A DNA stretch of 14,718 nt. Origin: an uncultured bacterium. Lineage in GTDB: Bacteria; Schekmanbacteria; GWA2-38-11; J061. The notes under the pieces were generated by a model, which ran no database searches, was not told where the DNA came from, and saw only the letters and a list, made by a program, of their open reading frames with translations. Each line of letters starts with the position of its first letter. Within the stretch, counting starts at the first letter, position 1. Below, one piece after another: positions 1-14,718 of the stretch. The translations under genes and the position numbers were made by a program. The stretch lies in assembly GCA_964549305.1 (NCBI GenBank), contig CAZJVM010000061.1, positions 1 through 14,718 of the forward strand, given 5' to 3'.

Positions 1-54
1 CTCCGGCCCCCTGCTCCCAAGGCAGGTGCGCTAACCAGACTGCGCTACGCCCCG
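1..54 (-). tRNA. tRNA-Pro, anticodon UGG (5' 54 nt; T arm and 3' acceptor strand run off the left window edge)
   Basis: Reverse complement reads CGGGGCG TA GCGC AGTCTGGTTA GCGC A CCTGC CT-TGG-GA GCAGG GGGCC GGAG: 5' acceptor strand starting with C as in bacterial tRNA-Pro, D stem GCGC/GCGC with GG in the loop, perfect 5-bp anticodon stem CCTGC/GCAGG, 7-nt loop with TGG (window 17-19). Confidence 0.96.
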
Positions 55-128
55 AATTAAATAATGTTCCCTTTAACCTGATTTTACGAAAAATTTCAAG
101 AAGAAAACAGTTGCGCAAAGATTGTATT

Positions 129-1268
129 CTAAATAGATTCTGACGATTCGCGAATAACGTTGGATACATAATCTATCATTTCATTGGTCATCTCGGGATA
201 AATGGGAAGGCTTAAAATTTCATCTGCGGCTTTTTCCGCAAAGGGGAAATCGCCTCTTTTGTATCCCAAATAACTGTATGCAGGCTGAAGGTGGAGGGGA
301 ATCGGATAGTGAATGCCCGTGTTTACTCCCGCGGCATGAAGTTTTTCCGAAAGGGCGTTTCGTTTCTTGCTTCTTATTACAAATAGATGATAAACGGGTG
401 TGGTGCCTTCAGGCACAAGGGGAAGAGTTATTTCTTCTATATCGCGCAGTAGTGAAACATATCTTTCCGCGTTACGTCGCCTCTTTTCGCTCCATTCATC
501 GAGATGACGCAATTTAACCCTCAGAATTGCCGCCTGCAGGGCGTCGAGTCTCGAATTTATTCCTTCAAATTCGTGTTCGTGTTTTTTTTGCCTTCCGTGA
601 TTTCGCGCCATACGGACATAAGCGGCAATATTTTTGTCATTCGTTACGACTGCGCCTGCATCTCCGTAAGCGCCGAGATTTTTGCCCGGGAAAAAACTGA
701 ACCCCGCGGCATTTCCTAAGCTTCCCGTTTTTTTGCCCCTGTAATACGCGCCGTGTGCCTGCGCGGAATCTTCTATTACGCGGATTTCATACTTTTGTGC
801 GATTGTGAGGATTGCTTCCATATCGGCAGGTTGTCCGTAGAGATGCACGGGAATTACCGCCTTTGGCAGGGGATTTTTGGAAGAATATTTCTGCTCCGCT
901 TTTTTTAAGAAATCATCGAGCTTTTGAGGGTCCATGTTGCAGGTTTTTTCGTCTATATCTACAAACTCTGCCTTTCCGCCCGCAAGAGTGATTGCTTCCG
1001 TTGTGGCAATGAATGTGTTTGGCGCGGTAATGATTTTGTCACCTTTTTCTATTCTGCATCCTTTCAGCGCAAGCCAGAGCGCGTCTGTGCCGTTTCCAAC
1101 GCCGATGCAGTATTTCACGCCGCAAAAATCCGCAAATTCCTTTTCAAAGCTTTCAACTTCGCTTCCCATTATAAAGGAAGTATTTTCGATAACGCGCGCG
1201 ATTGCCCCGTCAATTTCCGTGCGGATTGATTCGTACTGCGCTTTCAGGTCAACGAATGGAATTTTCAT
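129..1268 (-). CDS. DegT/DnrJ/EryC1/StrS-family PLP-dependent nucleotide-sugar aminotransferase, WbpE/WlbC/FdtB-like (probable C3 aminotransferase)
   Basis: 379 aa; N-terminal [36 protein letters not shown]-lysine motif [38 protein letters not shown]-like AAGGA upstream. Confidence 0.93.
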
Positions 1269-1296
1269 ATCTTTTATTTTATTCCTTAAAACAACT

Positions 1297-1349
1297 ATTT
1301 GCCTCTGTACTTAATTTTCTATAACATAAAATTATAATTTCCGGCAAAT
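1297..1349. promoter_or_regulatory. Candidate overlapping divergent sigma70-type promoters
   Basis: 97-bp gap between divergent starts. + strand TTGCCT(1299-1304)-N17-TAACAT(1322-1327); - strand TTGCCG(1347-1342)-N18-TATAGA(1323-1318) with an extended TGn; palindrome AAATTATAATTT (1329-1340). Motif match only, in AT-rich DNA. Confidence 0.35.
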
Positions 1350-1365
1350 TCTAAGGAGAGTTTAT

Positions 1366-2397
1366 ATGATAAATGTTTCCGTAATCGGTTGCGGATACTG
1401 GGGACCGAATCTCGTAAGGAATTTCTACGAAAATTCATCGTGCACGTTAAAGCATTGCTGTGATTTGGATTCTTCAAAAACGGGGAAGATTTTAAAGAAA
1501 TATCCCTCCATAGAAGGCGTCGCGGATTGCGATGAAGTCATATCTTCACCTGAAACCGATGCCGTGGCGATTGCGACTCCGGCAAATACCCATTTTGAGC
1601 TTGCGAAAAAAGCCCTTGAGGCGGGAAAGCACGTACTCGTCGAAAAACCTTTATCACTCTCTTCACGGGAAGCGGAAGACATAATAAATATCTCAACAAA
1701 GAAAAATCTCGTTCTTATGGTAGGGCATACATTCGAATACAATCCCGCCGTGAGAAAATTAAAGGAAATAATCAATTCCGGCGATGTGGGCAATCCGATG
1801 TATCTGTATGCCGCGCGCCTCAATCTCGGAGTCTTGAGAAAAGACGTCAACTCAATGTGGAATCTTGCGCCTCACGACATTTCCATTTTTCTTTACCTTC
1901 TCGATGAGTTTCCTGTTTCCGTTTCTGCAATAGGAAAGTCATTTATCCGCGAGGATTTGGAAGATGTGGTTTTTCTCTATCTCGAGTTTAAGTCGGGAAT
2001 CGTTGCACATCTTCATATAAGTTGTCTTGACCCTTCAAAGGTGAGAAAGACCACGATTGTATGCGAAAAGAAGATGATTATTTACGATGATATGGACAAT
2101 GACGGCAGGGTAAAGATTTACGACAAAGGATTTGAAACTACACTTGCAACTGACGGAGGGATACAGGACTATATCATAAGACCGCGCGCGGGCGATATTC
2201 TTATACCCAAAATAGACAATACGGAACCTCTTCACTTAGAAACATCTCATTTTCTCCAATGTATCGAAAAAGGGGAAAAACCTCTTACAGACGGACTTAA
2301 CGGATTGAGAGTGGTCAATGTCCTTGAAACGGCGCAAAAATCTCTCAGGCAGGAGGGGGCAATGAAGAAGACGAATTGGGAGAAACTCAGTTTTTAA
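1366..2397 (+). CDS. Gfo/Idh/MocA-family NAD-dependent oxidoreductase, probable nucleotide-sugar 3-dehydrogenase (WbpB/WlbA/GnnA-like role)
   Basis: 343 aa; Rossmann VIGCGYWG, IATP...H, GKHVLVEKP, LMVGH, catalytic-His region NLAPHD; SD AAGGAG 7 nt before ATG; flanked by an aminotransferase and an acetyltransferase. Confidence 0.9.
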   Translation: MINVSVIGCGYWGPNLVRNFYENSSCTLKHCCDLDSSKTGKILKKYPSIEGVADCDEVISSPETDAVAIATPANTHFELAKKALEAGKHVLVEKPLSLSSREAEDIINISTKKNLVLMVGHTFEYNPAVRKLKEIINSGDVGNPMYLYAARLNLGVLRKDVNSMWNLAPHDISIFLYLLDEFPVSVSAIGKSFIREDLEDVVFLYLEFKSGIVAHLHISCLDPSKVRKTTIVCEKKMIIYDDMDNDGRVKIYDKGFETTLATDGGIQDYIIRPRAGDILIPKIDNTEPLHLETSHFLQCIEKGEKPLTDGLNGLRVVNVLETAQKSLRQEGAMKKTNWEKLSF

Positions 2398-2421
2398 CCA
2401 CTTGGAGACAGGCGAAAAAAA

Positions 2422-3069
2422 GTGATAAGCAAAAGCGCGATTATTCATAAAGGCGTCAAACTGGGGAAAAACTGCATTGTGGAAGAGTATGCGGTAATCG
2501 GCGCTTTACCGCGGGGCGCGAAAGAAGGGGAATTGGAAACGGTTATAGGAGACAATGCGGTAATTCGCTCCCACACGATAATCTATGGAGATAACATAAT
2601 AGGAAACAATTTTCAGACGGGAAATAAAGCCAATATCAGGGAATCCAACGAAATAGGAAATGATGTGAGAATCGGGACGTTGTCCGTCATAGAGCATCAT
2701 GTCACGATAGGCAGTAATGTGAGAATTCACACGCAGGCATTCATTCCCGAATACACGGTTCTTGAAGAGGGCGCGTGGATAGGACCCAATGTGGTATTTA
2801 CCAATGCTCTTCATCCGCAATGTCCCAAAGTGATGGAATGCCTTAAGGGTGCAACAGTCAAAAAGTGCGTCATAGTGGGTGCCAATTCCACTATTTTACC
2901 TGACATAACTTTGGGAGAAAACTGCTTCGTTGCCGCAGGCGCCGTGGTTACAGACGATATTCCCGCGGGAAAAGTTGCCGCGGGCAACCCTGCGAAGGTT
3001 ATAAAAGATGTTTCGGATTTTAAATGCCCTTACAACCTCATCGATACCCCCTATAAGATTAGGAGTTGA
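2422..3069 (+). CDS. Left-handed beta-helix (hexapeptide repeat) N-acetyltransferase, WbpD/WlbB-like
   Basis: 215 aa, GTG start; many [LIV]G-x-x-x-x repeats (LGKNCI, IGDNAV, IGNNFQ, IGNDVR, IGSNVR), WIGPNVVFTN, VGANSTILP, AAGAVVTDDIP, C-terminal GNPAKVIK. Confidence 0.9.
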   Translation: MISKSAIIHKGVKLGKNCIVEEYAVIGALPRGAKEGELETVIGDNAVIRSHTIIYGDNIIGNNFQTGNKANIRESNEIGNDVRIGTLSVIEHHVTIGSNVRIHTQAFIPEYTVLEEGAWIGPNVVFTNALHPQCPKVMECLKGATVKKCVIVGANSTILPDITLGENCFVAAGAVVTDDIPAGKVAAGNPAKVIKDVSDFKCPYNLIDTPYKIRS

Positions 3070-3079
3070 TCTTCCATAG

Positions 3080-4291
3080 ATGATTTCAACTGACATACTG
3101 ATTACGGGCGCGGGAATAACCGGGCTTTCCGTTGCGCGTGAAATAAAGGCGCGCCATCCCTCTGCGAAAATTGTAATTTTGGAGAAGGAAAACGAGCTTG
3201 CCTTTCACGCAAGCGGAAGAAACAGCGGAGTAATACATGCGGGATTTTACTATACTCCCGATTCGCTCAAGGCAAAGCTAACCGTTGAGGGCAACCGCCT
3301 TCTTACGCAATACTGCATTGAAAACCGGCTCAATATTTTACGGTGCGGAAAGGTTGTTGTGGCAAAGAATGAAAAAGAGCTTGAAACGCTTTTTGAACTT
3401 AAAAGGAGAGGAGACAATAACGGCGCCACGCTCGATGTAATTGATGAGAATGAATTAAATCATATCGAGCCAAATGCAAAAACATTCGGGAAAGCGTTGT
3501 ATTCTCCATCGACTTCCACAATAGAGCCTAAAGAAGTCGTGAAAGATATGGCGAAGCGGTTAAGTTTAAGTAAAGATGTCGAAATCCTTTTGGGGACGAA
3601 GTTTTTAACACGGGAAGGAAACAATGCTGTCAACTCCACAGGCGGGGTTATTTCATACAAATACCTTATAAACTGTGCCGGGCTTTATGCTGACAGAGTC
3701 GCGCGCCAATTCGGCGCAGGAAAAAAATATACATTCATTCCCTTTAAGGGATTGTACCTCAAATACCTCGATGACACCTTAATAGAAAAGCATATATATC
3801 CGGTGCCTGATATTGACAATCCCTTTCTCGGAGTGCATTTCACTAAGTCTGTAGAGGGAAGCGTGAAAATTGGCCCTACTGCAATCCCCGCGTTCTGGAG
3901 GGAAAATTACAGAGGAATTTCAAGGTTTAAGGCACGCGAGTTTTTGGAAACGCTTTCTCTTGAAGCAAAACTCTTTGTAATGAATTCTTTTGGTTTCAGA
4001 CAGATAGCGCTCAGGGAGATGAGGAAGTATTCCATAAAAACATTTGCTTCACAGGCGGCTCTGCTTGTTAAAAAGATAGATTGTGAAAGATTCGGAAGCT
4101 ATTTAACTCCCGGAATAAGAGCACAGCTTGTTGACCTGGAAAAAATGAAACTCGAGATGGATTTTGTTATTGAAAAAAGTGATAACTCGGTGCATATACT
4201 AAATGCTGTATCGCCAGCTTTTACCTGCGCTTTTTCTTTCGGAAGGTATGTAGTCGATATGATAGACGATGAGTTAAAAAATCTTAAATGA
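3080..4291 (+). CDS. lhgO: L-2-hydroxyglutarate oxidase family FAD-dependent oxidoreductase
   Basis: 403 aa; FAD-binding GAGITG...LEKE, HASGRNSGVIHAGFYY, CGKVVVA, NCAGLYAD, IYPVPD...PFLGVHFT, GIRAQ, HILNAVSPAFT, all typical of the LhgO/L2HGDH family. Substrate not proven. Confidence 0.85.
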   Translation: MISTDILITGAGITGLSVAREIKARHPSAKIVILEKENELAFHASGRNSGVIHAGFYYTPDSLKAKLTVEGNRLLTQYCIENRLNILRCGKVVVAKNEKELETLFELKRRGDNNGATLDVIDENELNHIEPNAKTFGKALYSPSTSTIEPKEVVKDMAKRLSLSKDVEILLGTKFLTREGNNAVNSTGGVISYKYLINCAGLYADRVARQFGAGKKYTFIPFKGLYLKYLDDTLIEKHIYPVPDIDNPFLGVHFTKSVEGSVKIGPTAIPAFWRENYRGISRFKAREFLETLSLEAKLFVMNSFGFRQIALREMRKYSIKTFASQAALLVKKIDCERFGSYLTPGIRAQLVDLEKMKLEMDFVIEKSDNSVHILNAVSPAFTCAFSFGRYVVDMIDDELKNLK

Positions 4292-4330
4292 GACAATAAT
4301 GTTCGCTTATAAAAACAGGAGAATAAATTA

Positions 4331-5371
4331 ATGGGAAAAAAAGCTCTCATAACGGGAATCACGGGACAGGACGGAGCGTATCTTTCAAAGCTTCTTCTTG
4401 AAAATGGATATGAAGTCTATGGTGCCTTCCGAAGGACTTCGGACCTTCATCTCGAGCGCCTGAAGTTTCTGGGGATAGATGCGGATATTCGATATACGCC
4501 TCTTGAACTTCTAGAATTTACAAATATATACAGGACACTGGAAAAGATTCAGCCCGATGAAGTTTATAATCTCGGTGCTCAGAGTTTTGTGGCACTTTCC
4601 TTCGAAGAACCGATTTTTACTACCGATGTTACCGCTATCGGAGTCCTTCGCATACTGGAAGCAATAAGGGCGATCAATCCCAAAATAAAATTTTATCAGG
4701 CATCTTCAAGCGAAATGTTCGGAAAAGTACAGGCGATTCCTCAAAATGAAAACACCCCCTTCTATCCGAGAAGTCCCTATGCCGTGGCAAAAATGTTTGG
4801 ACATAACATAACGGTGAATTACCGCGAATCCTACGATCTCTTTGCCTGCTCGGGAATCCTTTTCAATCACGAATCTCCTTTGCGAGGTTATGAGTTTGTA
4901 ACGAGAAAGCTTACCTATGGAATCGCAAGGATTAAATGCGGGCTTCAGGATAAAATTCAGCTCGGGAATATGGAGGCAAAGAGAGACTGGGGATATGCGC
5001 CTGAGTATGTAGAGGCGATGTGGAAAATGCTTCAGCACGACAGCGCAGATGATTATGTCGTTGCCACGGGCGAAACACATTCCGTGAGGGAGTTTGTTGA
5101 AAGCGCTTTCAACCATATCGGAATCGATATTGATTGGCAGGGTGAGGGAGTTGACGAAAAGGGGATTGATAAAAAAACAGGCAAAACAGTACTTGAAGTT
5201 TCTCCTGAATTTTTCAGGCCTGCCGAAGTTCAGCTTCTCATCGGTGATGCTTCAAAGGCAAAAAAAGTATTGGGATGGCAGCCGAAAACCAAGTTTACCG
5301 ACCTCGTGAAGATAATGGTCGAAAGCGATGTAAAAAGAGTTATGGATAAAAAGCAGAATAAACATCTTTAA
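4331..5371 (+). CDS. gmd: GDP-mannose 4,6-dehydratase
   Basis: 346 aa; ALITGITGQDGAYL, PDEVYNLGAQSFV, FYQASSSEMFG, PFYPRSPYAVAK (YxxxK), GILFNHESPLRG, FVTRK, KRDWGYA, FRPAEV; SD AGGAG 9 nt upstream. Confidence 0.98.
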   Translation: MGKKALITGITGQDGAYLSKLLLENGYEVYGAFRRTSDLHLERLKFLGIDADIRYTPLELLEFTNIYRTLEKIQPDEVYNLGAQSFVALSFEEPIFTTDVTAIGVLRILEAIRAINPKIKFYQASSSEMFGKVQAIPQNENTPFYPRSPYAVAKMFGHNITVNYRESYDLFACSGILFNHESPLRGYEFVTRKLTYGIARIKCGLQDKIQLGNMEAKRDWGYAPEYVEAMWKMLQHDSADDYVVATGETHSVREFVESAFNHIGIDIDWQGEGVDEKGIDKKTGKTVLEVSPEFFRPAEVQLLIGDASKAKKVLGWQPKTKFTDLVKIMVESDVKRVMDKKQNKHL

Positions 5372-7104
5372 CCGGTGTCTTCGGCGGGAAGTGAAATCGT
5401 AAAAACCGTTCCCTGCCCGGGAGTACTCTTCACATCAAGAGACCCGTTATGAAGAAGTGTTATATGTTTAACGATGGAAAGGCCTAATCCGGTGCCGCCA
5501 AGTTTGCGTGAACGGGATTTGTCACAGACATAAAACCTTTCGAATATTCGTGAAATATCATTTTCGGGTATACCTATTCCAGTGTCTTCAATTTTAATGA
5601 GAAGTTTTTTGCCTGAAAATTCTGTTGTTATTGTTATTCTTCCCTTTTCAGTGTATTTTAACGCGTTGTCAACGAGGTTGATAAGCATCTGCTCAATTTT
5701 AAAGGTGTCACCGTTGATGACAGGAATTTTTTCCGGGAAAACAGTCTCAAGTTCCAATCCCTTAGAACGCGCTTTATCTTCAAAAAGTTTTAAAACTTTA
5801 TTTATCACGGCGTCTATTCTGATTGTTTCATATGCCAATTCTCCGTTCCTGTTTTCAAGTTCTCCGAGAACAAGCAGGTCATTTACAATATTTATGAGAC
5901 GGTCTGTATGGTTTAGTATGATATCTATGTATTCCTTTGCCTCGCCCTGTATATCCTCTTCAAGTGTTTCTGCGAATCCCTTTATTGCCGTAAGAGGAGT
6001 TCGAAGTTCGTGCGAAACATTGGTTACGAAGTCTTTCTTGATTTGTTCAAGATTTTTAATCTCGCTTATGTCATAAAACAGGAGAGCAATGTTTTTAACC
6101 AAAGCAACGGGCGACGCGCTTATGAAGAAATTTTTATTACGAATTTCTATTTCGCAACTGTAGTTTTCTTTTCCCGCTCTCACATTGTCGACAATTTCCT
6201 TAAAAAGGGGATTTCTTACTATTTCCCAGTAATTTCTTCCTTTAGTAATTTGTACAGCAAAAATCTTTTCGAGGCTTTTATTAAACAGAACAATTTTGTC
6301 ATTTTTATCTATTACGAGAAGTCCTTCTCTCAATGATGAGATAATTGCGTCGAGTTCGCGTTTTTTAGTGTCAAGTTCGGTAAACAGTTTTTTGACCTGT
6401 TCCGCCATAATGTTGAAATTGTTCGATAGGGTGCTCAGTTCATTATTGCTTTTTATAATCACTCTTGCGTCAAAATCTCCTTCTGAAAGGCGGTTTGAAG
6501 CAGATATTAATTCTTCCACGGGTTTTGAAAAACCGCGGGAAATAATAAGCGAGGCAACAAAGCAAATAATAAGAATAATTAGTGCAATGCCAATAATTCT
6601 CGCCTTAATCGTGTCAAGTAAGGAATTAATCTTTTTCAGATAAAGACTGACTCTTAGTACGCCTTCGATTTTATTATTTTCAATAATAGGGACTGCGACA
6701 TACAACATTTCTTCCTTTACCGTATTGCTAAAACGAAGCGAGGAACCCATTTTCCCCTCAAGCGCTTTGATGATTTCATCTCTTGTCCGATGATTTTCCA
6801 TTAATTCCGGATTTTTTTCCGAATCGGCAAGTACCTTTCCGTCCGGTGTGATGACCGTTATCCTTGTCTGTATTTTGGCGCCCATTCTTTTTGCTAAATA
6901 GTCCATTCCTGAAAAATCTTTATTTTTGTAGAAAGGTTTGACAGATACTTTCAAAGTTTCAGCGAGATTAAAAAGGTTTTCCTTCAGAGAATCTATATAG
7001 AATGATTTGATAACGCTGAAAGAGGTAAGAAGTATGAGCAATGTGAGGAGGAAAGTTATTAATATGTAACCTGTAAAGATTCCGCTGAAAAAAGATTTTT
7101 TCAT
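5368..7104 (-). CDS. phoR: Sensor histidine kinase, PhoR-like (TM - extracytoplasmic domain - TM - HAMP - PAS - HisKA - HATPase)
   Basis: 578 aa; two hydrophobic helices, ENHRTRDEI in the sensor loop, HAMP (P...NELSTLSNNFNIMA), PAS-like REGLLVID, H-box DFVTNVSHELRTPLTAIKGF, N-box NLVDNALKY, DTGIGIP, FERFY, DKSRSRKLGGTGLGLSIVKH. Kinase call is firm; PhoR specificity is less so. Confidence 0.8.
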   Translation of the reverse strand: MKKSFFSGIFTGYILITFLLTLLILLTSFSVIKSFYIDSLKENLFNLAETLKVSVKPFYKNKDFSGMDYLAKRMGAKIQTRITVITPDGKVLADSEKNPELMENHRTRDEIIKALEGKMGSSLRFSNTVKEEMLYVAVPIIENNKIEGVLRVSLYLKKINSLLDTIKARIIGIALIILIICFVASLIISRGFSKPVEELISASNRLSEGDFDARVIIKSNNELSTLSNNFNIMAEQVKKLFTELDTKKRELDAIISSLREGLLVIDKNDKIVLFNKSLEKIFAVQITKGRNYWEIVRNPLFKEIVDNVRAGKENYSCEIEIRNKNFFISASPVALVKNIALLFYDISEIKNLEQIKKDFVTNVSHELRTPLTAIKGFAETLEEDIQGEAKEYIDIILNHTDRLINIVNDLLVLGELENRNGELAYETIRIDAVINKVLKLFEDKARSKGLELETVFPEKIPVINGDTFKIEQMLINLVDNALKYTEKGRITITTEFSGKKLLIKIEDTGIGIPENDISRIFERFYVCDKSRSRKLGGTGLGLSIVKHITLLHNGSLDVKSTPGQGTVFTISLPAEDTG

Positions 7105-7781
7105 TCGTCTAATTTATACCCTATGCCTCGTATATTTTTAATAATTTTTGAGGCATCCCCGAGTTTTTCTCTGAGATGTCGGATATGCACATCTACTGTG
7201 CGGTCAATGACAATTTTGTCATTACCCCAAATCTTGTCGAGAATGCTTGTTCTCGAAAAAACTTTACCGGGATTTTCGGCAAATAGACGGAGGATTTTAA
7301 ATTCGGTGCTTGTCAGCTCGATTTCTGCGCCTTTTATCGTTACTACAAATTTTTCTGTATCAATTTTAATATCCCTGCCCAGGGAAATTCTTCCAATTGC
7401 TTTTTCTCCGCTTTCACGCCGAAGCACCGCTTTCACTCTTGCTGTGAGTTCTTTCGGCGAGAAGGGTTTTGTTACATAATCATCTGCACCGAGCTCCAGG
7501 CCGAGGATTTTGTCGATTTCATCCCCCTTTGCCGAGACTATGATAATTTTGCAGGAATTAAGCCCCCGCTCATTTCTTATGTGTTTGCAGATTTCAATTC
7601 CGTCGGTATCGGGAAGCATAAGGTCAAGGACTACGAGTTGAGGGATATTTTTATTCAGCGATTTTAAAAAACTTTTTCCATCAAGGAAAAGTTTTGTTTC
7701 GAATCCGGCTTTATCCAAATGAACAGATATCAGTTTTGCAATATCCGGTTCATCTTCAACTATGGCAATATAGGTCTTCAT
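7101..7781 (-). CDS. phoB: OmpR/PhoB-family response regulator (PhoB/PhoP-like)
   Basis: 226 aa; receiver IVEDE, phospho-acceptor LDLMLP, GADDYVTKPFS; winged helix LTSTEF, RTVDVHIRHLREKL, IRGIGY. ATGA overlap with the kinase (7101-7104). Confidence 0.8.
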   Translation of the reverse strand: MKTYIAIVEDEPDIAKLISVHLDKAGFETKLFLDGKSFLKSLNKNIPQLVVLDLMLPDTDGIEICKHIRNERGLNSCKIIIVSAKGDEIDKILGLELGADDYVTKPFSPKELTARVKAVLRRESGEKAIGRISLGRDIKIDTEKFVVTIKGAEIELTSTEFKILRLFAENPGKVFSRTSILDKIWGNDKIVIDRTVDVHIRHLREKLGDASKIIKNIRGIGYKLDE

Positions 7782-7844
7782 ATCTGATTAGATTAATATT
7801 CTCATATTAAACATATTAAGAGGAGTTTGAAAATTCTTTTCTTG

Positions 7845-7868
7845 AAAAAACCGGAGTTTCAGCCGGTT
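7845..7868 (-). terminator. Possible weak intrinsic terminator at the end of arnD
   Basis: - strand AACCGG-CTGAAACT-CCGG-TTTTTT: short GC stem, 8-nt loop containing the arnD TGA stop, 6-U tract. Confidence 0.4.
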
Positions 7869-8797
7869 ATTTGAAGTGCGACTTTGCTGCTTCTCCCGCG
7901 AATAAATTTCTCTTCTATCCCGCAATGGGGAATATCCGTTATTCTTTTTTTTATAATATCTGCCGCATCCCCTAAGGAAATAATATTTATATTGTTTTCC
8001 TTAAGTTTCGTAAGAATCTCAGTAAAAATACGCTTCCCCGGTTCGACTCCTTCGAGTTCGGGATGAACGGTCATCACACTGAAAGGAGTTTTTTTGATTT
8101 TATTTAAATAGAATGATGGCAATTCCTTATCCTTCATGCCGTCAAAACCATAGATTTCGTCAAGTGTAGGAAGAGTGGTGGGGATTTCCAGCGTTTTAAT
8201 CAGGTTATCTCCGAATTTCGGGAAAAAAGGAGTATTCCCCCGCGTATCACTATGGTAGTTAAGGTTCAGTTCATCTTCTGTCTGAAGACTTGTCTTTGTT
8301 GCGCGCCAACCCGGAGATGCGCACGATGACGGACTTTTGCCGATAAGGTCCTCAAAAATATTTTTTGCCTTTATCAGTTCACTTCTTATTTCATCTTCGC
8401 TCATCTCTGATAATTCTTCGTGCCACTTCACGTGGTCATATCCGTGAATGCCGCATTCGTGTCCTTCTGCCCTTATCATCTTCAGGACTTCCTTGTTAGA
8501 AGAGGCGATTAAAGGTGCTTTGACGATGAATCCGCAGGCAAGAGTTTTTATGGGGAATTTTTTTATCCGACGCGTGCGCAGGGTCATTTTGAAAAACTCC
8601 TTCCTGAAGATTCTTTTTAGCGCCTTGCCGGAGTTATCGGGACCCATTGCCACGAAGAAACTTGCCCTGATGTTAAATTTTGAAAAAACCCTCATTATGG
8701 AAGGGACATTTTCCTTAAGCCCTATGTTGGTATCTACATCAACTTTAACTGCAAGCGTAGGTGATGAAAAAAAATCAGGTATTTTTTTCATTTTCAA
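7859..8797 (-). CDS. arnD: Undecaprenyl-phosphate-Ara4FN deformylase (polysaccharide deacetylase fold)
   Basis: 312 aa (start could be the second ATG at 8791); KVDVDT, MGPDNSG, HGYDHVKW, PGWR, TLPTLDE, VMTVHPELEG parallel ArnD motifs (IDVDT, GPDN, HxWDH, TLPTxDE, TIHAEVEG); last gene of the arn run. Confidence 0.88.
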   Translation of the reverse strand: MKMKKIPDFFSSPTLAVKVDVDTNIGLKENVPSIMRVFSKFNIRASFFVAMGPDNSGKALKRIFRKEFFKMTLRTRRIKKFPIKTLACGFIVKAPLIASSNKEVLKMIRAEGHECGIHGYDHVKWHEELSEMSEDEIRSELIKAKNIFEDLIGKSPSSCASPGWRATKTSLQTEDELNLNYHSDTRGNTPFFPKFGDNLIKTLEIPTTLPTLDEIYGFDGMKDKELPSFYLNKIKKTPFSVMTVHPELEGVEPGKRIFTEILTKLKENNINIISLGDAADIIKKRITDIPHCGIEEKFIRGRSSKVALQITG

Positions 8798-9740
8798 TGA
8801 ACCATTCGACTGTTTTTCTCATCCCATCCTCAAGAGATATTTCGGGAGTGACATTAAGTACTGTTTTCATTTTAGTAATATCGGGGACCCTTCTTCTTAT
8901 ATCTTCATAGCTTTTACCGTAAATTGATTCCTGATTGACATATTCTATTTTGGATTTTGATTCAGAAACCTTGATCATTATTTCCGCAAGCTCGTTAATC
9001 GTTGTTTCTCTGTCTGTGCCGATATTGAATACTTCGCCGTTTGCCTTTTCGCTCATTCCCGCTTCAATGGTCGCCCTTATTGCATCTTCTACATAGGTGA
9101 AACAGCGAGTCTGCTTTCCGTCACCGATTACCGTAAGATTTTTTTTCTTTAGAATCTGTCCCATAAATATGGTGATAATCCTTCCAACATCAACCCTGTC
9201 CAGACGCGGTCCGTAAACATTAAAATAACGCACTATTGTAACGGGAAGTCCCATTGAATGATAGGCAAAGCAGAAATGCTCGCCTGCCGCTTTTGATGTG
9301 GAGTAGCACCAGCGGTCTATCTTTGTGGAACCGAGCACCCTGTCGTCGTTTTCGCTGAAGGGGATTTTGGGGTTTCTGCCGTATATTTCCGATGTTGAAG
9401 TGAAAATCACTTTTTTTCCGTACTTGTATGCCATCCTTAAAACATTCTGAACGCCGTTAATATTGACATTTAAAACATTATAAGGGTCGTCCACATAGTG
9501 CTCTACTCCCACCACTGCCGCCATATGATACACGAGGTCGCATTTCAGAATGAGCGCGTCAAGAAGGTCTTCATTGAAAATAGAATCCTTTATATAGTGA
9601 AAATTCTTGTTCCCGATATTGTGAGCCACCTTGAAATCTTTTGCAAGGTCAAGGGCAAAGACTTCGTGTCCTTCCTTAAGAAAATGGTCTCCGAGATGTG
9701 AACCTAAAAAACCGCCTCCTCCTGTAATCAATATCTTCAA
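8775..9740 (-). CDS. Extended SDR NAD-dependent epimerase/dehydratase, probable UDP-glucuronate C4 dehydrogenase/decarboxylase (stand-alone equivalent of the ArnA C-terminal domain)
   Basis: 321 aa, TTG start with SD AAGGAG; GGGGFLG, TSTSEIYG, RWCYSTSK (YxxxK), FNVYGPRLD, QTRCFTYV, YGKSYEDIRRRVP; lies between the formyltransferase and arnD. Confidence 0.78.
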   Translation of the reverse strand: MKILITGGGGFLGSHLGDHFLKEGHEVFALDLAKDFKVAHNIGNKNFHYIKDSIFNEDLLDALILKCDLVYHMAAVVGVEHYVDDPYNVLNVNINGVQNVLRMAYKYGKKVIFTSTSEIYGRNPKIPFSENDDRVLGSTKIDRWCYSTSKAAGEHFCFAYHSMGLPVTIVRYFNVYGPRLDRVDVGRIITIFMGQILKKKNLTVIGDGKQTRCFTYVEDAIRATIEAGMSEKANGEVFNIGTDRETTINELAEIMIKVSESKSKIEYVNQESIYGKSYEDIRRRVPDITKMKTVLNVTPEISLEDGMRKTVEWFIENEKNT

Positions 9741-9762
9741 TCTGTTTTCTCCTTGTTTTAGA

Positions 9763-10704
9763 TTATTTAAATAAAATTCCTTCTAATCCTTTAAATTTTC
9801 TGAATAAGTCTTTTCCCTTAATTTCTTTTTCACCTTCAAGCTGAACTGATTTTACAAGCAATAATCCTTTCCCTGTTTTTATTAGCATTCCCGTTGACGG
9901 AAAAACCCTGATAATTATCCCCTGTTTGATGTTCTTTAAAGTATTCCGACTTTTTGACAATACTGCATTCCAGACAAAAAGTTTTTTCCCCTCAATGAAA
10001 GTGTATGCACCGGGATAAGGATGAGCAACAGCGCGAATGAGATTATAAATTGATTCCGCGCTGTTTTCCCAATGAATCAATCCGTCTTCGGGATTCCTGC
10101 CTCCGAAATACGATGCTTTTTTAAAATTTTGTCTATGGGGTTTAATCTTCATCTTTTCTATAAGAGGATAAGTTTTTCGAATTAAAATTCCCGATGCTTT
10201 TTCCATTTTTGTAAATAATGTGAATGCCGTGTCCCGAAAGGATATGGGCACGCGTTTTTGTGCAACAATGTCTCCCGAATCCGGAGATTTTTCCATATAA
10301 TGCAGAGTCACGCCCGTAGATTTTTCACCTTTTATAATTGCCCAGTTTACGGGACATCTTCCCCTGTATGCGGGCAGGTATGAGCCGTGAAGATTGAATG
10401 CGCCGAGTCGGGGTATCTCAAGTATGGATTCAGGCAGAAGATAGCGATAATAAAATGAAAAAATAATGTCGGGGTTAATCTTTTTTATTTTTCGGAAAAA
10501 ATTTTCGCTCCTTATCTCTTTGTTTGTCGGCGTTGACACGGGAATTTTATTTTTACGGGCGAGGTCTTCAACTGATTTAAACCAGATATTTTCACCTTTT
10601 GAATCTTTGTGGGTTATGACGGCGGAAATCTCAGCACCCAGAGAGAGCAATTCTTTAACGCAGGTATAACCGATATTATGGTAAGCAAAAATCAGAACCT
10701 TCAC
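9763..10704 (-). CDS. arnA: UDP-Ara4N formyltransferase (stand-alone ArnA N-terminal domain)
   Basis: 313 aa, GTG start overlapping the arnC stop (GTGA); FAYHNIG, IIFSFYYR, NLHGSYLPAYRGRCPVNW, DSGDI, NLIRAVAHPYPGA match the ArnA formyltransferase domain rather than Met-tRNA Fmt. Confidence 0.9.
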   Translation of the reverse strand: MKVLIFAYHNIGYTCVKELLSLGAEISAVITHKDSKGENIWFKSVEDLARKNKIPVSTPTNKEIRSENFFRKIKKINPDIIFSFYYRYLLPESILEIPRLGAFNLHGSYLPAYRGRCPVNWAIIKGEKSTGVTLHYMEKSPDSGDIVAQKRVPISFRDTAFTLFTKMEKASGILIRKTYPLIEKMKIKPHRQNFKKASYFGGRNPEDGLIHWENSAESIYNLIRAVAHPYPGAYTFIEGKKLFVWNAVLSKSRNTLKNIKQGIIIRVFPSTGMLIKTGKGLLLVKSVQLEGEKEIKGKDLFRKFKGLEGILFK

Positions 10705-11678
10705 TTTATATCTTCTTCTTTACCGGAATTGCCGGTGTGATTGTATTGTGAAATGAGGTAATGCGGTTTGCCCCTTACTTCGTAATATATTCTGCCCACA
10801 TACTCTCCCACAAATCCTATCAGCAGCGCTTCTATACCGAGGAATGTAAATAAGATTGAAATCATTATGTGTATAATTGTTATTGACCTATAAAAAAACG
10901 AAGAGATAAATAGCGTTCCTGTCAGGATAAATCCAAGCCCTGTTGCAATGATTCCCAAAAGCGTAATTGCCTGAAGAGGTAAAAGCGATGAATTGGTGAG
11001 AATATCGAAATTCAGCTTTAACAAGTTCAGCGCGTTGTATTTCGATACGCCTCTTTCTCTTTCTCTATGCTCGACTTCAATTTCTGTCGGATTTTTGGAA
11101 TATCTGAATGTGAGAGCGGGAATGAAAAAACTCGAAAACTCATTCAGCTCTGTAATTCTTTTAACTACATCTTTTCTGTATGCCCTTAACATACAACCAT
11201 AGTCATTGAGCTTTATTCCCGTAAGTTTGTTGAGAACAACATTTCCTGCTTTTGACACTATTTTCCTGAAAAAAGGGTCGTGCCGGTTTTTCCTCCAACC
11301 TCCTACTGAATCGTGACCCTCTTCAATCTTTTTTATAAAACGGGGAATTTCTTCCGGTGGATTTTGCAGGTCAGCATCAATGGTCAGTATTATTTCGCCC
11401 CGGGCAAGCTCAAATCCCGCAAAGATAGCCGTATGTTGTCCGTAGTTTCTTGCAAACCTGTATATTTTGATATTTGAATTCTCTCTTCTTATTTTTTTTA
11501 AAATTTCCCACGAGGAATCAGTGCTTCCGTCATTTATAAAAATGATTTCGTGGCTCTTTTTTAATGAGGAGAGGACTCCTGATAACTCTTTAGTGAAAAT
11601 CTCGATATTTTCCTCTTCATTATATACAGGGACGACAACTGAAAGGTATATTTCGTTTTCCCGTTTATCGTTTGTCAT
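10701..11678 (-). CDS. arnC: Undecaprenyl-phosphate Ara4FN transferase (GT2)
   Basis: 325 aa; SVVVPVYNEE, NDGSTD, RNYGQHTAIFAG, DADLQNPPEEIP, DYGCMLRAY, two C-terminal TM helices then GEYVGRIY. Confidence 0.92.
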   Translation of the reverse strand: MTNDKRENEIYLSVVVPVYNEEENIEIFTKELSGVLSSLKKSHEIIFINDGSTDSSWEILKKIRRENSNIKIYRFARNYGQHTAIFAGFELARGEIILTIDADLQNPPEEIPRFIKKIEEGHDSVGGWRKNRHDPFFRKIVSKAGNVVLNKLTGIKLNDYGCMLRAYRKDVVKRITELNEFSSFFIPALTFRYSKNPTEIEVEHRERERGVSKYNALNLLKLNFDILTNSSLLPLQAITLLGIIATGLGFILTGTLFISSFFYRSITIIHIMISILFTFLGIEALLIGFVGEYVGRIYYEVRGKPHYLISQYNHTGNSGKEEDIK

Positions 11679-11692
11679 TCTGCGACAATCCT

Positions 11693-12880
11693 CTATTTTT
11701 TAAATTTTCTCGAAATATATTTAATTGCATCACAGACATACAGGACATCACTTTTTTTCATTAACGGGAAAAGGGGAAGAGAAACTATTCTTTCTCCCGT
11801 CTTTGCCGCTTCCGGAAAATCATTCTTTCGAAAACCATATTTTTTTCTGTAATAGGGCTGTGTGTGAATTGCCTGAAAATGAATTCCCGTACCTACATTC
11901 ATTTTTTTTAATTCTTCAATGAATTGTGACCTTGATATTTTAATCGCCTTCAGGTTGAGTTTTATTATGTAGAGATGCCACGCGTGTCGGCAATCGTATT
12001 TAACCGTTTCCGGACGCATTACCGCTTCACAATCTTCCAATCCCTTGTTGTAGATTTTTGCAAATTTCGTTCGCTTTGAAATAAATTCGTCAAGCTTGTC
12101 AATTTGATGGATACCGAGCGCCGCCTGAATATCGAGCATATTATATTTAAATCCCGGCAGGTGAAGTCCGTATTCGGCTTTGCCGCCTTTTGCGTATCGC
12201 GCCCACGCGCCTGATGTGATGCCGTGAAATCTCAGCAGACTTATCTTTTCACCGATTGACTTTTTTGAGAAGGCGACAATTCCGCCTTCCCCCGTTGTTA
12301 TATTTTTTAACGGATGAAAACTGAATATCGTTGCATCGCTTCCAAGCGCGCCTATTCTTCTGCCCTTGTATTCTGTTCCGATTGCGTGCGCGGCATCCTC
12401 GATAACGGCGATTCTTTTCTTTTTCGCAATCTTTAAAATAATATCCATATCGCAGGGCTGCCCCGCAAAATGTACGGGCATTATGGCTTTTGTGTGCTTC
12501 GTTATTTTTGATTCAATCTCATTTTCCCGGATATTCATTGTTCCCGGGTTTATGTCAACAAACACCGGTTTCGCCCCGACGTGTTCAATGACATTTACCG
12601 TTGCCGCAAAGGTCATCGGCGTTGTTATCACTTCATCGCCTTCTTTTATGCCGAGTGCAAGCAGTGAAGTATGAAGCCCCGCGGTGCCTGAGTTGAGCGC
12701 AAGGCACTCTTTTGCGCATGTATACTTCTTTATCTTTTTTTCAAACGCTATTACCTTCGGGCCGGTAGTAATCCAGCCTGATTTCAGTGAATCAGTGACT
12801 TCCTTAATCTCTTCAGTGCTGATTGAGGGTCTTGAAAGAGGAAGAAAATCTTTTCTTTTTTTAAAAGAAGATGTTTTCAA
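11693..12880 (-). CDS. arnB: UDP-4-amino-4-deoxy-L-arabinose aminotransferase
   Basis: 395 aa, TTG start; FLPLSRP, SGWITTGPK, EDAAHA, SFHPLKNITTGEGG (PLP Lys), PGFKYN, HAWHLYI, GTGIHF; directly upstream of arnC. Confidence 0.92.
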   Translation of the reverse strand: MKTSSFKKRKDFLPLSRPSISTEEIKEVTDSLKSGWITTGPKVIAFEKKIKKYTCAKECLALNSGTAGLHTSLLALGIKEGDEVITTPMTFAATVNVIEHVGAKPVFVDINPGTMNIRENEIESKITKHTKAIMPVHFAGQPCDMDIILKIAKKKRIAVIEDAAHAIGTEYKGRRIGALGSDATIFSFHPLKNITTGEGGIVAFSKKSIGEKISLLRFHGITSGAWARYAKGGKAEYGLHLPGFKYNMLDIQAALGIHQIDKLDEFISKRTKFAKIYNKGLEDCEAVMRPETVKYDCRHAWHLYIIKLNLKAIKISRSQFIEELKKMNVGTGIHFQAIHTQPYYRKKYGFRKNDFPEAAKTGERIVSLPLFPLMKKSDVLYVCDAIKYISRKFKK

Positions 12881-12901
12881 TTTAACCTTAATACTCCTCT
12901 A

Positions 12902-14518
12902 TCAGTGGTTTGAAATTAAAAAATAACTGCTTCTGTCAACATTTCCTAATGAGGTGATATGTACACCATGGGGCAGAATTGAAAATATATCTTCGAGCGT
13001 ATCATCATTTACAAGATACAAAACATCTTCTTTGTTTCTTAAATTACTTGTTACAGTATTCCACGATTTATCCTCAATAAATGTTTTTCCAAGATAAAAT
13101 GGAATACTCATATCATTTTCAGAGAGATCATACCCCCGAAGTGTTGAATCATCTTTGACATTACTTTTAATACTACGGGCAACGTTATAATAAGTCTTCT
13201 TCACCCAGGATGTTTCATATTTCAGATTAAAATATGAAGCTAACAATACTGCAGAAATGAGAAAAAGTGAAATGAAAAGATTTTTGTAATCGCTGCTCAG
13301 TGAAAAGAAAAGGGCTGAAATAATGGAAATTATCAAAATAAAGGAAATTAATGAAACCTTTGTCTGAAATCCGGAAATCCATATCCACCTGATTGTCATT
13401 ACCGACGCAATAATTACAAAGGCAGTGGTAAATATTTTTTCAAAGAGATTTAGAAATTTACCCGGTTTGAGGAGCAAATAATTTCCCATCATCCATTCTG
13501 CCGTCAGTAGAGAAAAAGCAGGCACGACGGGCAGAAGATAAAGTGACCTTTTTGTTGACGGAATGCTCAGGATAAAAAAAGGAATAAAGGCGAATATTGA
13601 AATTAAAAACAGGGACTGTCTGTGTTCGTAATTTTTATCATTTAAAGATTTAACGGTATTAAATATGACAAATGGAAGACATATTGACCAGGGGAAAAGA
13701 ATCTCGAATATTTTTGGAAAGTAGTAAAAAAAACTTTGTTTATGACCCAGCGATGCGCTGAAAAAGCGATTCCAATGGTTTTCTACAAAATAGAAATAAA
13801 AATATGAACTTCCCCCCTTCTGCCAGAGAAGGTAAAACCACGGCGTTGCTATTAGAAAAAATAAGAGAGCGCCTACTGCGATTTTCATCTCTTTTAGCTC
13901 GTGAAGATTTTTCTCCGAGAAAAGGAACATGAGAATAACAGGACATATAATTACAAGACTGATTGGTCCTTTGCTTAAAAATGCGAGCGCCCACATTGCA
14001 TACATCAAAAGGTAATTAAAAGTCTTTCCGCCTCTGTTTAGATAACCGCGCATAAAAAAATAAAATGATGCAATGATGAAGAAGGAGACAGATGTGTCGA
14101 TGAGACATTTATATTCCGCGGCAAGAAATTGGTGAGTAGTGAGCGCAATCATTGCGGAAGCAATTCCGGTTTTTCTGTCAAAGAGCAGTATCCCCAAAGC
14201 ATATGTGAATAATATAATTCCCGTTCCGAACAAAAATGACGGTATTCTTGAAAGTGCGGCATTTGCCCTGCCAGCGATACTGAAGACTGATGCAACTGAC
14301 CAGTAATAGAGAGGAGGTTTTTCAAGAAATGGCTTTTCGTTAAGACGGGGGACAACATAGTCACCGCTTTGCCACATCTCACGGGCAATCTCTGCTACGC
14401 GCGGTTCATCGGGCAGAGAGAGTTCTTCCTGAATAGGTCCTGCGATAAAAAGTAGGAATACTGCAATAAAAAGCACTATATATACTAATTTATTCAACCC
14501 ACTATATTCAATTTGCAT
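12902..14518 (-). CDS. arnT: ArnT-family GT-C membrane glycosyltransferase (probable lipid A Ara4N transferase)
   Basis: 538 aa polytopic membrane protein; DEPRVAEIAREM, PRLNEKPFLEKPPLYYW, RIPS, KGP, PWF, PWS, TKRSLYLLP, soluble C-terminal domain; sits directly upstream of arnB. Confidence 0.9.
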   Translation of the reverse strand: MQIEYSGLNKLVYIVLFIAVFLLFIAGPIQEELSLPDEPRVAEIAREMWQSGDYVVPRLNEKPFLEKPPLYYWSVASVFSIAGRANAALSRIPSFLFGTGIILFTYALGILLFDRKTGIASAMIALTTHQFLAAEYKCLIDTSVSFFIIASFYFFMRGYLNRGGKTFNYLLMYAMWALAFLSKGPISLVIICPVILMFLFSEKNLHELKEMKIAVGALLFFLIATPWFYLLWQKGGSSYFYFYFVENHWNRFFSASLGHKQSFFYYFPKIFEILFPWSICLPFVIFNTVKSLNDKNYEHRQSLFLISIFAFIPFFILSIPSTKRSLYLLPVVPAFSLLTAEWMMGNYLLLKPGKFLNLFEKIFTTAFVIIASVMTIRWIWISGFQTKVSLISFILIISIISALFFSLSSDYKNLFISLFLISAVLLASYFNLKYETSWVKKTYYNVARSIKSNVKDDSTLRGYDLSENDMSIPFYLGKTFIEDKSWNTVTSNLRNKEDVLYLVNDDTLEDIFSILPHGVHITSLGNVDRSSYFLISNH

Positions 14519-14564
14519 TTCTTTTAAAGTTCAGTCTCCTGAGAAAGTTTAAAATATATCTCTT

Positions 14565-14718
14565 TTAAAACAGGATTTGGTTTTTTAGGATATTAGTTTT
14601 CTTTTTAAGAATGCCAAGAGTTGTAAAAATTAAAAATGACATTATCAAAAGGATCTGCCAAACAGTATCAAATTCAAAAATATTTTCAACAAACGCATCT
14701 TCTAAAATGCCAGTTCCC
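14565..14718 (-). CDS. 3' end of an upstream gene, probable membrane protein (partial; not in the ORF track)
   Basis: Frame from 14717 is open for 50 codons: GTGILEDAFVENIFEFDTVWQILLIMSFLIFTTLGILKKKTNILKNQILF*, stop TAA at 14567-14565; hydrophobic helix followed by KKK; ends 46 bp before arnT on the same strand. Confidence 0.65.
   Translation of the reverse strand, partial: GTGILEDAFVENIFEFDTVWQILLIMSFLIFTTLGILKKKTNILKNQILF

Follow-up and report, generated by a model that had tools for sequence, protein, structure and literature searches.

In Pseudomonas aeruginosa, the Gfo-type C3-dehydrogenase WbpB binds NADH tightly, and 2-oxoglutarate re-oxidizes the bound cofactor, giving D-2-hydroxyglutarate (D-2-HG) (Xiao et al. 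2021, PMC8651671). According to the same source, D-2-HG inhibits WbpB and deletion of the D-2-HG dehydrogenase D2HGDH (PA0317) lowers O-antigen; the legend to its Fig. 6 describes a 2-HG dehydrogenase that likewise sustains a 2-oxoglutarate-dependent dehydrogenase, SerA. Cj1427 from Campylobacter jejuni, a short-chain dehydrogenase/reductase (SDR), holds its NADH in non-exchangeable form and reduces 2-oxoglutarate to L-2-HG (PMC10680097). The L enantiomer is oxidized to 2-oxoglutarate, in a flavin adenine dinucleotide (FAD)-dependent reaction, by LhgD/LhgO and L2HGDH (L2HGDH: PMC10726252). Here we describe an LhgO-family gene that lies in a sugar-nucleotide operon of an uncultured bacterium (GTDB lineage Bacteria; Schekmanbacteria; GWA2-38-11; J061), on contig CAZJVM010000061.1 of assembly GCA_964549305.1; the whole analyzed stretch, positions 1 to 14,718 of the forward strand, is called the window below. 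We tentatively propose, with somewhat less than even confidence, that LhgO was recruited into a conserved nucleotide-sugar module, where it would recycle L-2-HG made by the Gfo/Idh/MocA dehydrogenase (Gfo) of the same operon.

Open reading frames of the window were obtained by six-frame translation and assigned by family scans (Pfam and NCBIfam), and their products were compared with solved structures in the PDB. The LhgO-like protein scored 329.6 bits against NF008726, "L-2-hydroxyglutarate oxidase," and passed the equivalog cut-off of 299, as did its homologs at loci L058 (321.7 bits), L073 (340 bits), and L003 (337.2 bits). PF01266 (DAO) covers residues 5 to 394 with 162.8 bits, and the FAD-binding GxGxxG Rossmann motif is present as GAGITG at residues 10 to 15. 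The top PDB match is Drosophila L2HGDH (8w75, 199.8 bits). In this enzyme (dmL2HGDH), 2-oxoglutarate is contacted by Ser88, His92, Tyr289, His302, and Arg393, mutation of each of which abolishes or impairs activity, and the enzyme is inactive on D-2-HG, L-malate, and L-lactate (PMC10726252). Alignment to 8w75 (chain offset 40) places window residues S49, H53, Y240, H253, and R347 at these five positions. The conserved sites bind the C1-carboxyl, the C2-OH, and the C5-carboxyl of 2-oxoglutarate, and include the Arg at the distal carboxylate. None of the 95 family members in a MAFFT alignment, E. coli LhgD (YgaF) among them, deviates at any of these five columns, so that the window protein shares its substrate-binding residues with the E. 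coli, Drosophila, and human enzymes. Because the equivalog cut-off is passed and all five dmL2HGDH substrate residues are kept, the window flavoprotein is most likely an L-2-HG dehydrogenase that acts on free L-2-HG and not on a sugar.

The earlier note on this DNA, made from the sequence alone, had offered direct oxidation of a sugar or of an acyl substituent as the alternative, to which a different 2-hydroxy acid can be added as a candidate substrate. The gene is indeed embedded among sugar-modifying enzymes, and the DAO superfamily is functionally diverse; the second NCBIfam match of the protein is the type 2 glycerol-3-phosphate oxidase (132.9 bits), and its identity to E. coli LhgD is just 32%. 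The intact 2-oxoglutarate-binding site, with its distal-carboxylate Arg, and the score above the NF008726 cut-off speak against another substrate, however, and we consider this explanation quite improbable.

The genes and intergenic region around LhgO are as follows.

129 to 1268, minus strand: DegT/DnrJ/EryC1-family pyridoxal phosphate (PLP)-dependent aminotransferase of the sugar 3-aminotransferase type (PF01041, 379 bits), divergent from the operon

1269 to 1365, no strand: AT-rich divergent intergenic spacer of 97 bp, read directly from the sequence

1366 to 2397, plus strand: Gfo/Idh/MocA NAD-dependent oxidoreductase, a putative nucleotide-sugar C3-dehydrogenase (PF01408, PF22725, PF02894)

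2422 to 3069, plus strand: left-handed beta-helix (hexapeptide) N-acetyltransferase, QdtC-like, with a GTG start (PF00132)

3080 to 4291, plus strand: LhgO/LhgD/L2HGDH-family FAD-dependent gene (NF008726; PF01266, DAO)

4331 to 5371, plus strand: gmd, GDP-mannose 4,6-dehydratase, the last gene of the operon (TIGR01472)

The Gfo and acetyltransferase genes are separated by 24 bp, as read from the junction sequence. Both junctions of the LhgO gene were read as well and confirmed the spacing given in the earlier note: the acetyltransferase stop codon TGA (3067 to 3069) is followed after 10 bp by the LhgO ATG at 3080, and the LhgO stop codon (4289 to 4291) after 39 bp by the gmd ATG at 4331. The gmd stop codon overlaps a convergent histidine kinase gene by 4 bp. 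Co-transcription of Gfo, acetyltransferase, LhgO, and gmd, predicted from the short gaps, is consistent with the sequence because a pattern scan found no terminator-like site on the plus strand between 1366 and 5371. The spacer at 1269 to 1365 is presumed to be the promoter region for both transcription units; a pattern scan reported no consensus sigma-70 site in it. The usual catabolic partners of LhgO, glaH/csiD and gabDT, are missing from the window, as the earlier note had stated. A tblastn search of the whole, 100%-complete genome with E. coli GlaH gave no match at E ≤ 1e-5, and GabD/GabT-like genes are present on other contigs, unlinked to LhgO, which is single copy in the source genome. 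The context is thus unlike that of E. coli lhgD, which forms part of glaH-lhgD-gabDTP (glutarate and lysine catabolism): the window gene stands among sugar-nucleotide genes in a genome without glaH.

In the proposed loop, Gfo would oxidize the C3 hydroxyl of a nucleotide sugar and regenerate its NAD+ by reducing 2-oxoglutarate to L-2-HG. The aminotransferase would convert the 3-keto sugar to a 3-amino sugar with glutamate, releasing 2-oxoglutarate, and the acetyltransferase would cap the amine. LhgO would then re-oxidize L-2-HG to 2-oxoglutarate and pass the electrons to a quinone, probably menaquinone, with the net effect that an inhibitory by-product would be removed and an unfavorable oxidation pulled forward. 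What we infer is that the window Gfo reduces 2-oxoglutarate at all, that its product is the L enantiomer, which acceptor takes the electrons, and which sugar is made. Menaquinone is a plausible acceptor because the source genome gives one match to the futalosine pathway (PF02621, 157.8 bits), which lends weak support; MenA was not found in the source genome. For eukaryotic L2HGDH, a preprint from 2026 reports a link to reduction of a quinone (a CoQ intermediate).

The place of LhgO in the operon is conserved in the lineage, which was sampled thinly (one genome of the same genus, G001, one of the same family, G002, and two of the same order). G002 has the aminotransferase gene, on the minus strand, divergent from Gfo-acetyltransferase-LhgO-gmd, in the same order as the window, with 64% identity for LhgO and 67% for Gfo. 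The same gene order is found in G001, split over two contig ends, and the position of LhgO within the module is thus kept in three genomes at 64 to 70% identity. The flanks differ. In G002, a second DegT-family gene, an unnamed gene, hldE, wecB, and wecC lie upstream and an NTP_transf_5 gene lies downstream; in G001, a GalT-like gene and a transketolase gene follow the module. In the source genome, the block of a second DegT-family gene, hldE, and wecB is on another contig (C47), and the five-gene module abuts arn genes and a two-component system. Because gene order is kept in G001 and G002 while the flanks change, the five genes (DegT, Gfo, acetyltransferase, LhgO, and gmd) behave, as read from these sequences, as one unit in which the place of LhgO is selected for; this conservation counts as a single evolutionary event. 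LhgO was not found at E ≤ 1e-30 in G003 (same order, 99% complete), which also has no Gfo ortholog, the best match being 34% identical.

Beyond the lineage, LhgO recurs in two other settings beside Gfo, acetyltransferase, and DegT-family genes. At L058, from Salinimicrobium, the order is manC-gmd-LhgO-fcl-X-Gfo-acetyltransferase-DegT, with LhgO between gmd and fcl, and the Gfo and DegT products give 316 and 318 bits, respectively, with their window counterparts. In this Salinimicrobium sp. TH3 locus (L058 4772 to 8407), the fcl gene beside LhgO encodes a GDP-L-fucose synthase (NF047922, 417 bits, in two stretches), and a NusG/UpxY-like gene, a gene for a UDP-sugar dehydrogenase, and manC are found upstream. 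The next best relative of the L058 LhgO among 200 other Flavobacteriaceae is 52% identical, and the lack of a close relative suggests that this LhgO was acquired together with the island. The second setting is found in two further Flavobacteriaceae genomes, as rmlBACD-Gfo-acetyltransferase-DegT-LhgO-wzx in G104 and as Gfo-DegT-LhgO in G151. The LhgO of these two genomes is of another subclade, 36% identical to the window protein and 42% to E. coli LhgD. The Gfo from G104, 81% identical to that of G151, belongs to the Chromobacterium violaceum/Bordetella pertussis WlbA class (3q2i and 3q2k, 240 and 230 bits), with 65.9 bits to WbpB (3oa2) and 49.6 bits to Thermus thermophilus WlbA (3o9z). Because LhgO recurs beside two other, non-orthologous Gfo-acetyltransferase-DegT cassettes, its pairing with Gfo in the window gains support.

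We searched 201 genomes of the Flavobacteriaceae, the family of L058, with LhgO and with both Gfo types. LhgO-family genes are present in 14 of the 201. Seven genomes carry one or the other Gfo type, and 6 of them have LhgO, as do 8 of the remaining 194 (Fisher p = 2.4e-7, uncorrected for kinship); the two groups were defined after a first look, and related genomes are not independent. In two of the seven Gfo carriers (G090 and G196; loci L131 and L132) the Gfo gene is not beside a DegT-family gene. Among the five carriers with an adjacent DegT-family gene, LhgO is in the locus in three, elsewhere in the genome in G237, and missing from G055. At the loci of these last two genomes (L133 in G237 and L134 in G055), a formyltransferase-like gene takes the place of the acetyltransferase gene alongside the WlbA-like Gfo and DegT-family genes, which suggests a 3-formamido sugar cassette.

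The nature of the sugar can be approached through the other enzymes of the module. The window Gfo carries GCGYWG at residues 8 to 13, EKP at 93 to 95, and HD at 170 to 171, which we take to be the Rossmann GxGxxG, the catalytic-Lys EKP, and the downstream His/Asp motifs of the Gfo/Idh/MocA family. Its top NCBIfam match is NF040723, UDP-GlcNAc 3-dehydrogenase, at 174.8 bits, far under the cut-off of 450, and its top PDB match is 7bvj (94.4 bits), presumably GnnA. It is a probable nucleotide-sugar 3-dehydrogenase, similar to GnnA and the archaeal UDP-GlcNAc 3-dehydrogenase, and not a WbpB ortholog. The subfamily is very large and bears only generic names, with at least 7,994 relatives at E ≤ 1e-30 among 8,000 scored candidates; one 76%-identical relative is labeled Candidatus Schekmanbacteria in the database listing. 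The source genome encodes two further Gfo paralogs. One, at G000:C12:37097-38035 (L097), scored 228.3 bits with the UDP-GlcNAc 3-dehydrogenase model in a genome search that gave 149.1 bits for the operon Gfo, and may be a GnnA-type enzyme for lipid A; the third is on contig C9.

The nearest solved relatives of the aminotransferase and the acetyltransferase are C3-specific enzymes. The aminotransferase gave 384.5 bits with QdtB (3frk), 287 bits with WbpE (3nu7 and 3nyu), and about 187 bits with perosamine (C4) synthetases, and the acetyltransferase gave 156.7 bits with QdtC (3fs8) and 57.5 bits with the WlbB-type enzyme 3mqg. Gmd scored 475.6 bits with TIGR01472 (cut-off 415) and 550.6 bits with Aquifex Gmd (2z1m); with this cut-off passed and this structural match, a Cj1427-type dehydrogenase was ruled out for this gene. 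The Gmd reaction is internally redox neutral. The module resembles the WlbA/WlbB/WlbC, GnnA/GnnB, archaeal UDP-GlcNAc 3-dehydrogenase, and QdtB/QdtC (dTDP-Qui3NAc) pathways in that supply of a 3-keto sugar by C3 oxidation or otherwise would be followed by PLP-dependent transamination and N-acetylation; unlike them, it has no QdtA-type ketoisomerase and adds gmd and LhgO. Its product would be a 3-acetamido-3-deoxy sugar, either of the UDP-GlcNAc3NAc type or a GDP-3-acetamido-3,6-dideoxyhexose, the latter suggested by the presence of gmd together with the QdtB and QdtC likeness.

A number of observations weigh against the Gfo-coupled loop, the first group of which concerns the enzymes. WbpB (3oa2) and T. 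thermophilus WlbA (3o9z) are missing from the 52 PDB matches of the window Gfo at E ≤ 1e-10. Its closest characterized relatives, GnnA and the archaeal UDP-GlcNAc 3-dehydrogenase, work with free NAD+. WbpB, the only Gfo enzyme whose 2-HG product has been typed, gives D-2-HG, on which L2HGDH is inactive. The source genome encodes three FAD-oxidase_C (GlcD/D2HGDH-like) proteins, not assignable to D2HGDH, which could handle D-2-HG. D2HGDH itself belongs to the FAD-linked oxidase family, a different type of flavoprotein from the DAO-type LhgO. WbpB is described as a 2-oxoglutarate-using, ping-pong enzyme and the B. pertussis and C. violaceum enzymes as sequential (PMC10622841); by sequence, the Gfo of the G104 type is nearest to this latter WlbA class, reported there as independent of 2-oxoglutarate. 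The earlier note had drawn on WbpB for the conversion of 2-oxoglutarate to 2-HG, and this chemistry is indeed published, but the enantiomer is D and is recycled by D2HGDH, not by LhgO (PMC8651671).

The second group concerns distribution. In 401 diverse genomes from many families, window-type Gfo (E ≤ 1e-60) was found in 146 and LhgO (E ≤ 1e-40) in 64; the two occur together in 31 genomes, so that 115 of the 146 genomes with window-type Gfo lack LhgO. Co-occurrence is weak in this sample (odds ratio 1.8, p = 0.034; p = 0.083 without the window's family). A metagenome scan with the Gfo protein gave 13 loci, 12 of them true relatives, and LhgO was found in the stored flanks of none of these 12, which is weak evidence since several of the contigs are short. 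No usable residue signature for LhgO-linked Gfo proteins emerged when those of the window, G001, G002, L058, and L179 were compared with 116 database homologs of unsorted LhgO status; two weak positions (K44 and N114) were the only ones found, neither invariant within the LhgO-linked set.

The neighborhoods of LhgO genes were followed in two censuses. The first took the best 80 of 507 confirmed LhgO relatives in species genomes, with neighbors to ±3 genes; Pfam annotation was run on cluster representatives and singletons at ±2 and ±3 were left out, so its counts are lower bounds. At least two glycan genes were found at at least 20 of the 80 loci and one at 5 further loci, leaving 55 without a glycan neighbor. 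The second covered 61 LhgO loci, to ±4 genes, taken from all but one (G328) of the 61 LhgO-positive genomes that do not belong to the window's family; at least two glycan-family matches were found at 7 of these loci, at least one at 15, and none at 46. In a tree of 82 LhgO sequences, from a quick maximum-likelihood search with SH-aLRT support only, branching mostly tracks taxonomy and the copies embedded in glycan loci do not group together; two origins are needed for the three Gfo-linked rows and seven for the rows with other glycan neighbors. The earlier note had asked whether lhgO genes in polysaccharide loci form one clade, and this tree rules that out.

These distributions bear on a different explanation, that LhgO performs ordinary metabolite repair of L-2-HG arising from side reactions of malate or lactate dehydrogenase and is merely resident, or co-regulated, in a glycan operon. 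Taxonomic branching and the majority of loci in both censuses without a glycan neighbor favor it, as do the many genomes that manage with window-type Gfo and no LhgO. The closest LhgO clade, from Brocadiaceae, has CbiJ/DUF362 neighbors. Within the class Bacteroidia, the G104-type LhgO is present in 202 of 331 genomes (G780, flagged as unpublished, is counted here), and Gfo with DegT, or any two glycan matches, was found at none of the 40 closest Bacteroidia LhgO loci. From this commonness and these non-glycan surroundings, we take the cassette copies of the G104 type to be captures of a housekeeping gene. Metabolite repair accounts less well for the conserved place of LhgO in the module of three genomes with changing flanks, or for a 10-bp gap to the acetyltransferase gene that fits shared expression. 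It must also explain why three separate lineages tie LhgO, from differing subclades, to Gfo-acetyltransferase-DegT cassettes, and why LhgO, rare in Flavobacteriaceae, yet tracks the genomes with such Gfo genes. On balance we regard metabolite repair as somewhat unlikely. Conserved non-glycan neighbors were also seen for LhgO of Bacteroidales (S16/RecO/PorZ; L031, L038, L041, and others) and of Omnitrophota and Planctomycetota (NadA/alpha-beta hydrolase/MetW; L032, L034, L046, and L078).

The third group of observations concerns which glycan genes stand beside LhgO. Gfo with acetyltransferase and DegT was found at only 1 of the 80 closest loci (L058), and 12 of the 20 glycan loci in that census are of one Bacillota type with an RmlC-like and an SDR gene. 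In the diverse census, an SDR gene is directly adjacent at 6 of 61 loci, and Gfo with DegT shares a stretch with LhgO at 2, not adjacent at either: about 7 kb away at L138, and about 12 kb away, as Gfo-acetyltransferase-DegT, at L179 (G274), where LhgO stands between an SDR gene and an RmlC-like gene. The comparison of Gfo plus DegT with other sugar genes that the earlier note had called for thus went the other way, the SDR/RmlC-like pair being commoner in both censuses. The Bacillota cluster (L030, L033, L040, L044, L048, L051, L061, L062, L065, L073, L076, and L081) comprises genes for a nucleotidyltransferase, a DRL-like (PF21135) NAD oxidoreductase, LhgO, an epimerase that truly matches the RmlC model, an SDR of a kind other than the 4,6-dehydratases, and an RmlD-like reductase. 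By analogy, it looks like a Cj1427/Cj1430/Cj1428-type pathway with a built-in L-2-HG recycler. Another small glycan context may exist at L139 (G377) and L141 (G530), where LhgO adjoins a WecB-like gene and a hexapeptide acetyltransferase gene similar to that of the window (107 to 110 bits) is two genes away.

A further explanation is that the window LhgO recycles L-2-HG made by a Cj1427-type SDR, whose gene would lie elsewhere or which would work on the GDP-sugar branch begun by Gmd. No sugar dehydrogenase other than Cj1427 (PMC10680097) is known to make L-2-HG, SDR and RmlC-like genes are the commonest glycan neighbors of LhgO, as at the G274 locus, and LhgO directly adjoins gmd both in the window's family and in Salinimicrobium. 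However, the sole SDR of the operon is a true Gmd, and in tblastn searches of the complete genome no RmlC-like gene turned up, while the SDRs that adjoin LhgO elsewhere had at best weak matches (≤29% identity). In G104 and G151, moreover, LhgO directly follows the DegT-family gene, with Gfo one or two genes upstream. We consider an SDR producer improbable. Because no Cj1427-like SDR or RmlC-like gene was found and Gmd is a true dehydratase, Gfo is left as the sole candidate producer in operon and genome, and the most economical reading of LhgO in the module is that it recycles the by-product of a sugar dehydrogenase that uses 2-oxoglutarate. The four-enzyme recycling module put forward in the earlier note is favored by an L-2-HG site with all its residues in place and by a gene module that is conserved and recurs outside the lineage; a Gfo that is not of the WbpB type, the D-2-HG precedent, and the lack of LhgO in most genomes with this Gfo type speak against it.

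Set beside the described systems, the module shares with the WbpB-D2HGDH system a Gfo C3-dehydrogenase, a DegT-family aminotransferase, and an acetyltransferase; there, a flavoprotein 2-HG dehydrogenase returns 2-oxoglutarate, as LhgO would do in the proposed loop. It differs in that the WbpB system involves D-2-HG and its link is known from deletion mutants and not from gene adjacency, whereas the candidate recycler of the window is a predicted L-specific DAO-family enzyme encoded in the operon, beside a Gfo that is not WbpB-type. Cj1427, the C. jejuni GDP-D-glycero-D-manno-heptose C4-dehydrogenase, matches it in another respect, since its tightly bound NADH is re-oxidized by 2-oxoglutarate to yield the enantiomer that LhgO uses, but Cj1427 is an SDR and not a Gfo, and the window operon has no such SDR. 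That a 2-HG dehydrogenase can sustain a 2-oxoglutarate-dependent dehydrogenase is known already for SerA and for WbpB, with D-2-HG (PMC8651671), so that the earlier note's remark that no such coupling was known to be demonstrated is outdated as regards the D enantiomer. Full-text searches of a limited collection found no paper on lhgO inside glycan loci or on L-2-HG recycling for sugar dehydrogenases.

The rest of the window is occupied by other genes. Downstream of gmd, on the minus strand (5368 to 14518), are genes for a PhoR/WalK-like kinase and a PhoB-like regulator, followed by a set for modification of lipid A with 4-amino-4-deoxy-L-arabinose (L-Ara4N). This arn set is complete, with ArnT-like, ArnB, ArnC, and ArnD products and an ArnA whose formyltransferase and dehydrogenase are encoded by two genes; all of the products score under the enterobacterial equivalog cut-offs. 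At the start of the contig (1 to 55, minus strand), the sequence can be read as the 5′ portion of a tRNA gene that runs off the contig, with the anticodon-loop-like CTTGGGA; ARAGORN made no tRNA call at the window start.

A broader proposal, which we hold to be more doubtful than the loop in the window itself, is that glycan operons of several phyla carry their own L-2-HG/2-oxoglutarate shuttle, in which Gfo C3-dehydrogenases, including the GnnA-like and "sequential" WlbA-like classes that are regarded as working with free NAD+, would take 2-oxoglutarate released by the next enzyme as oxidant and make L-2-HG, the enantiomer opposite to that of WbpB, and an LhgO encoded in cis would wire the electrons to the quinone pool. 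If true, the new element would be that glycan operons encode an L-specific recycler in cis, perhaps for Gfo classes in which use of 2-oxoglutarate is not known, and 2-oxoglutarate-driven cofactor recycling would extend from WbpB and Cj1427 to further classes of Gfo. An enzyme of lysine and glutarate catabolism and of metabolite repair would then have a second, dedicated role in support of making cell-surface sugars. The loop would explain what pulls the unfavorable C3 oxidation in organisms with a reduced NAD pool, and would make amino-sugar synthesis independent of the cellular NAD+/NADH ratio, which would be useful in an anaerobe. It would also supply an annotation rule for lhgO genes that seem misplaced in glycan loci, and the 2-HG enantiomer released by a sugar dehydrogenase would become predictable from the recycler encoded beside it. 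Should the proposal prove false, the locus would still illustrate cleanly how a mobile glycan module can capture a housekeeping gene.

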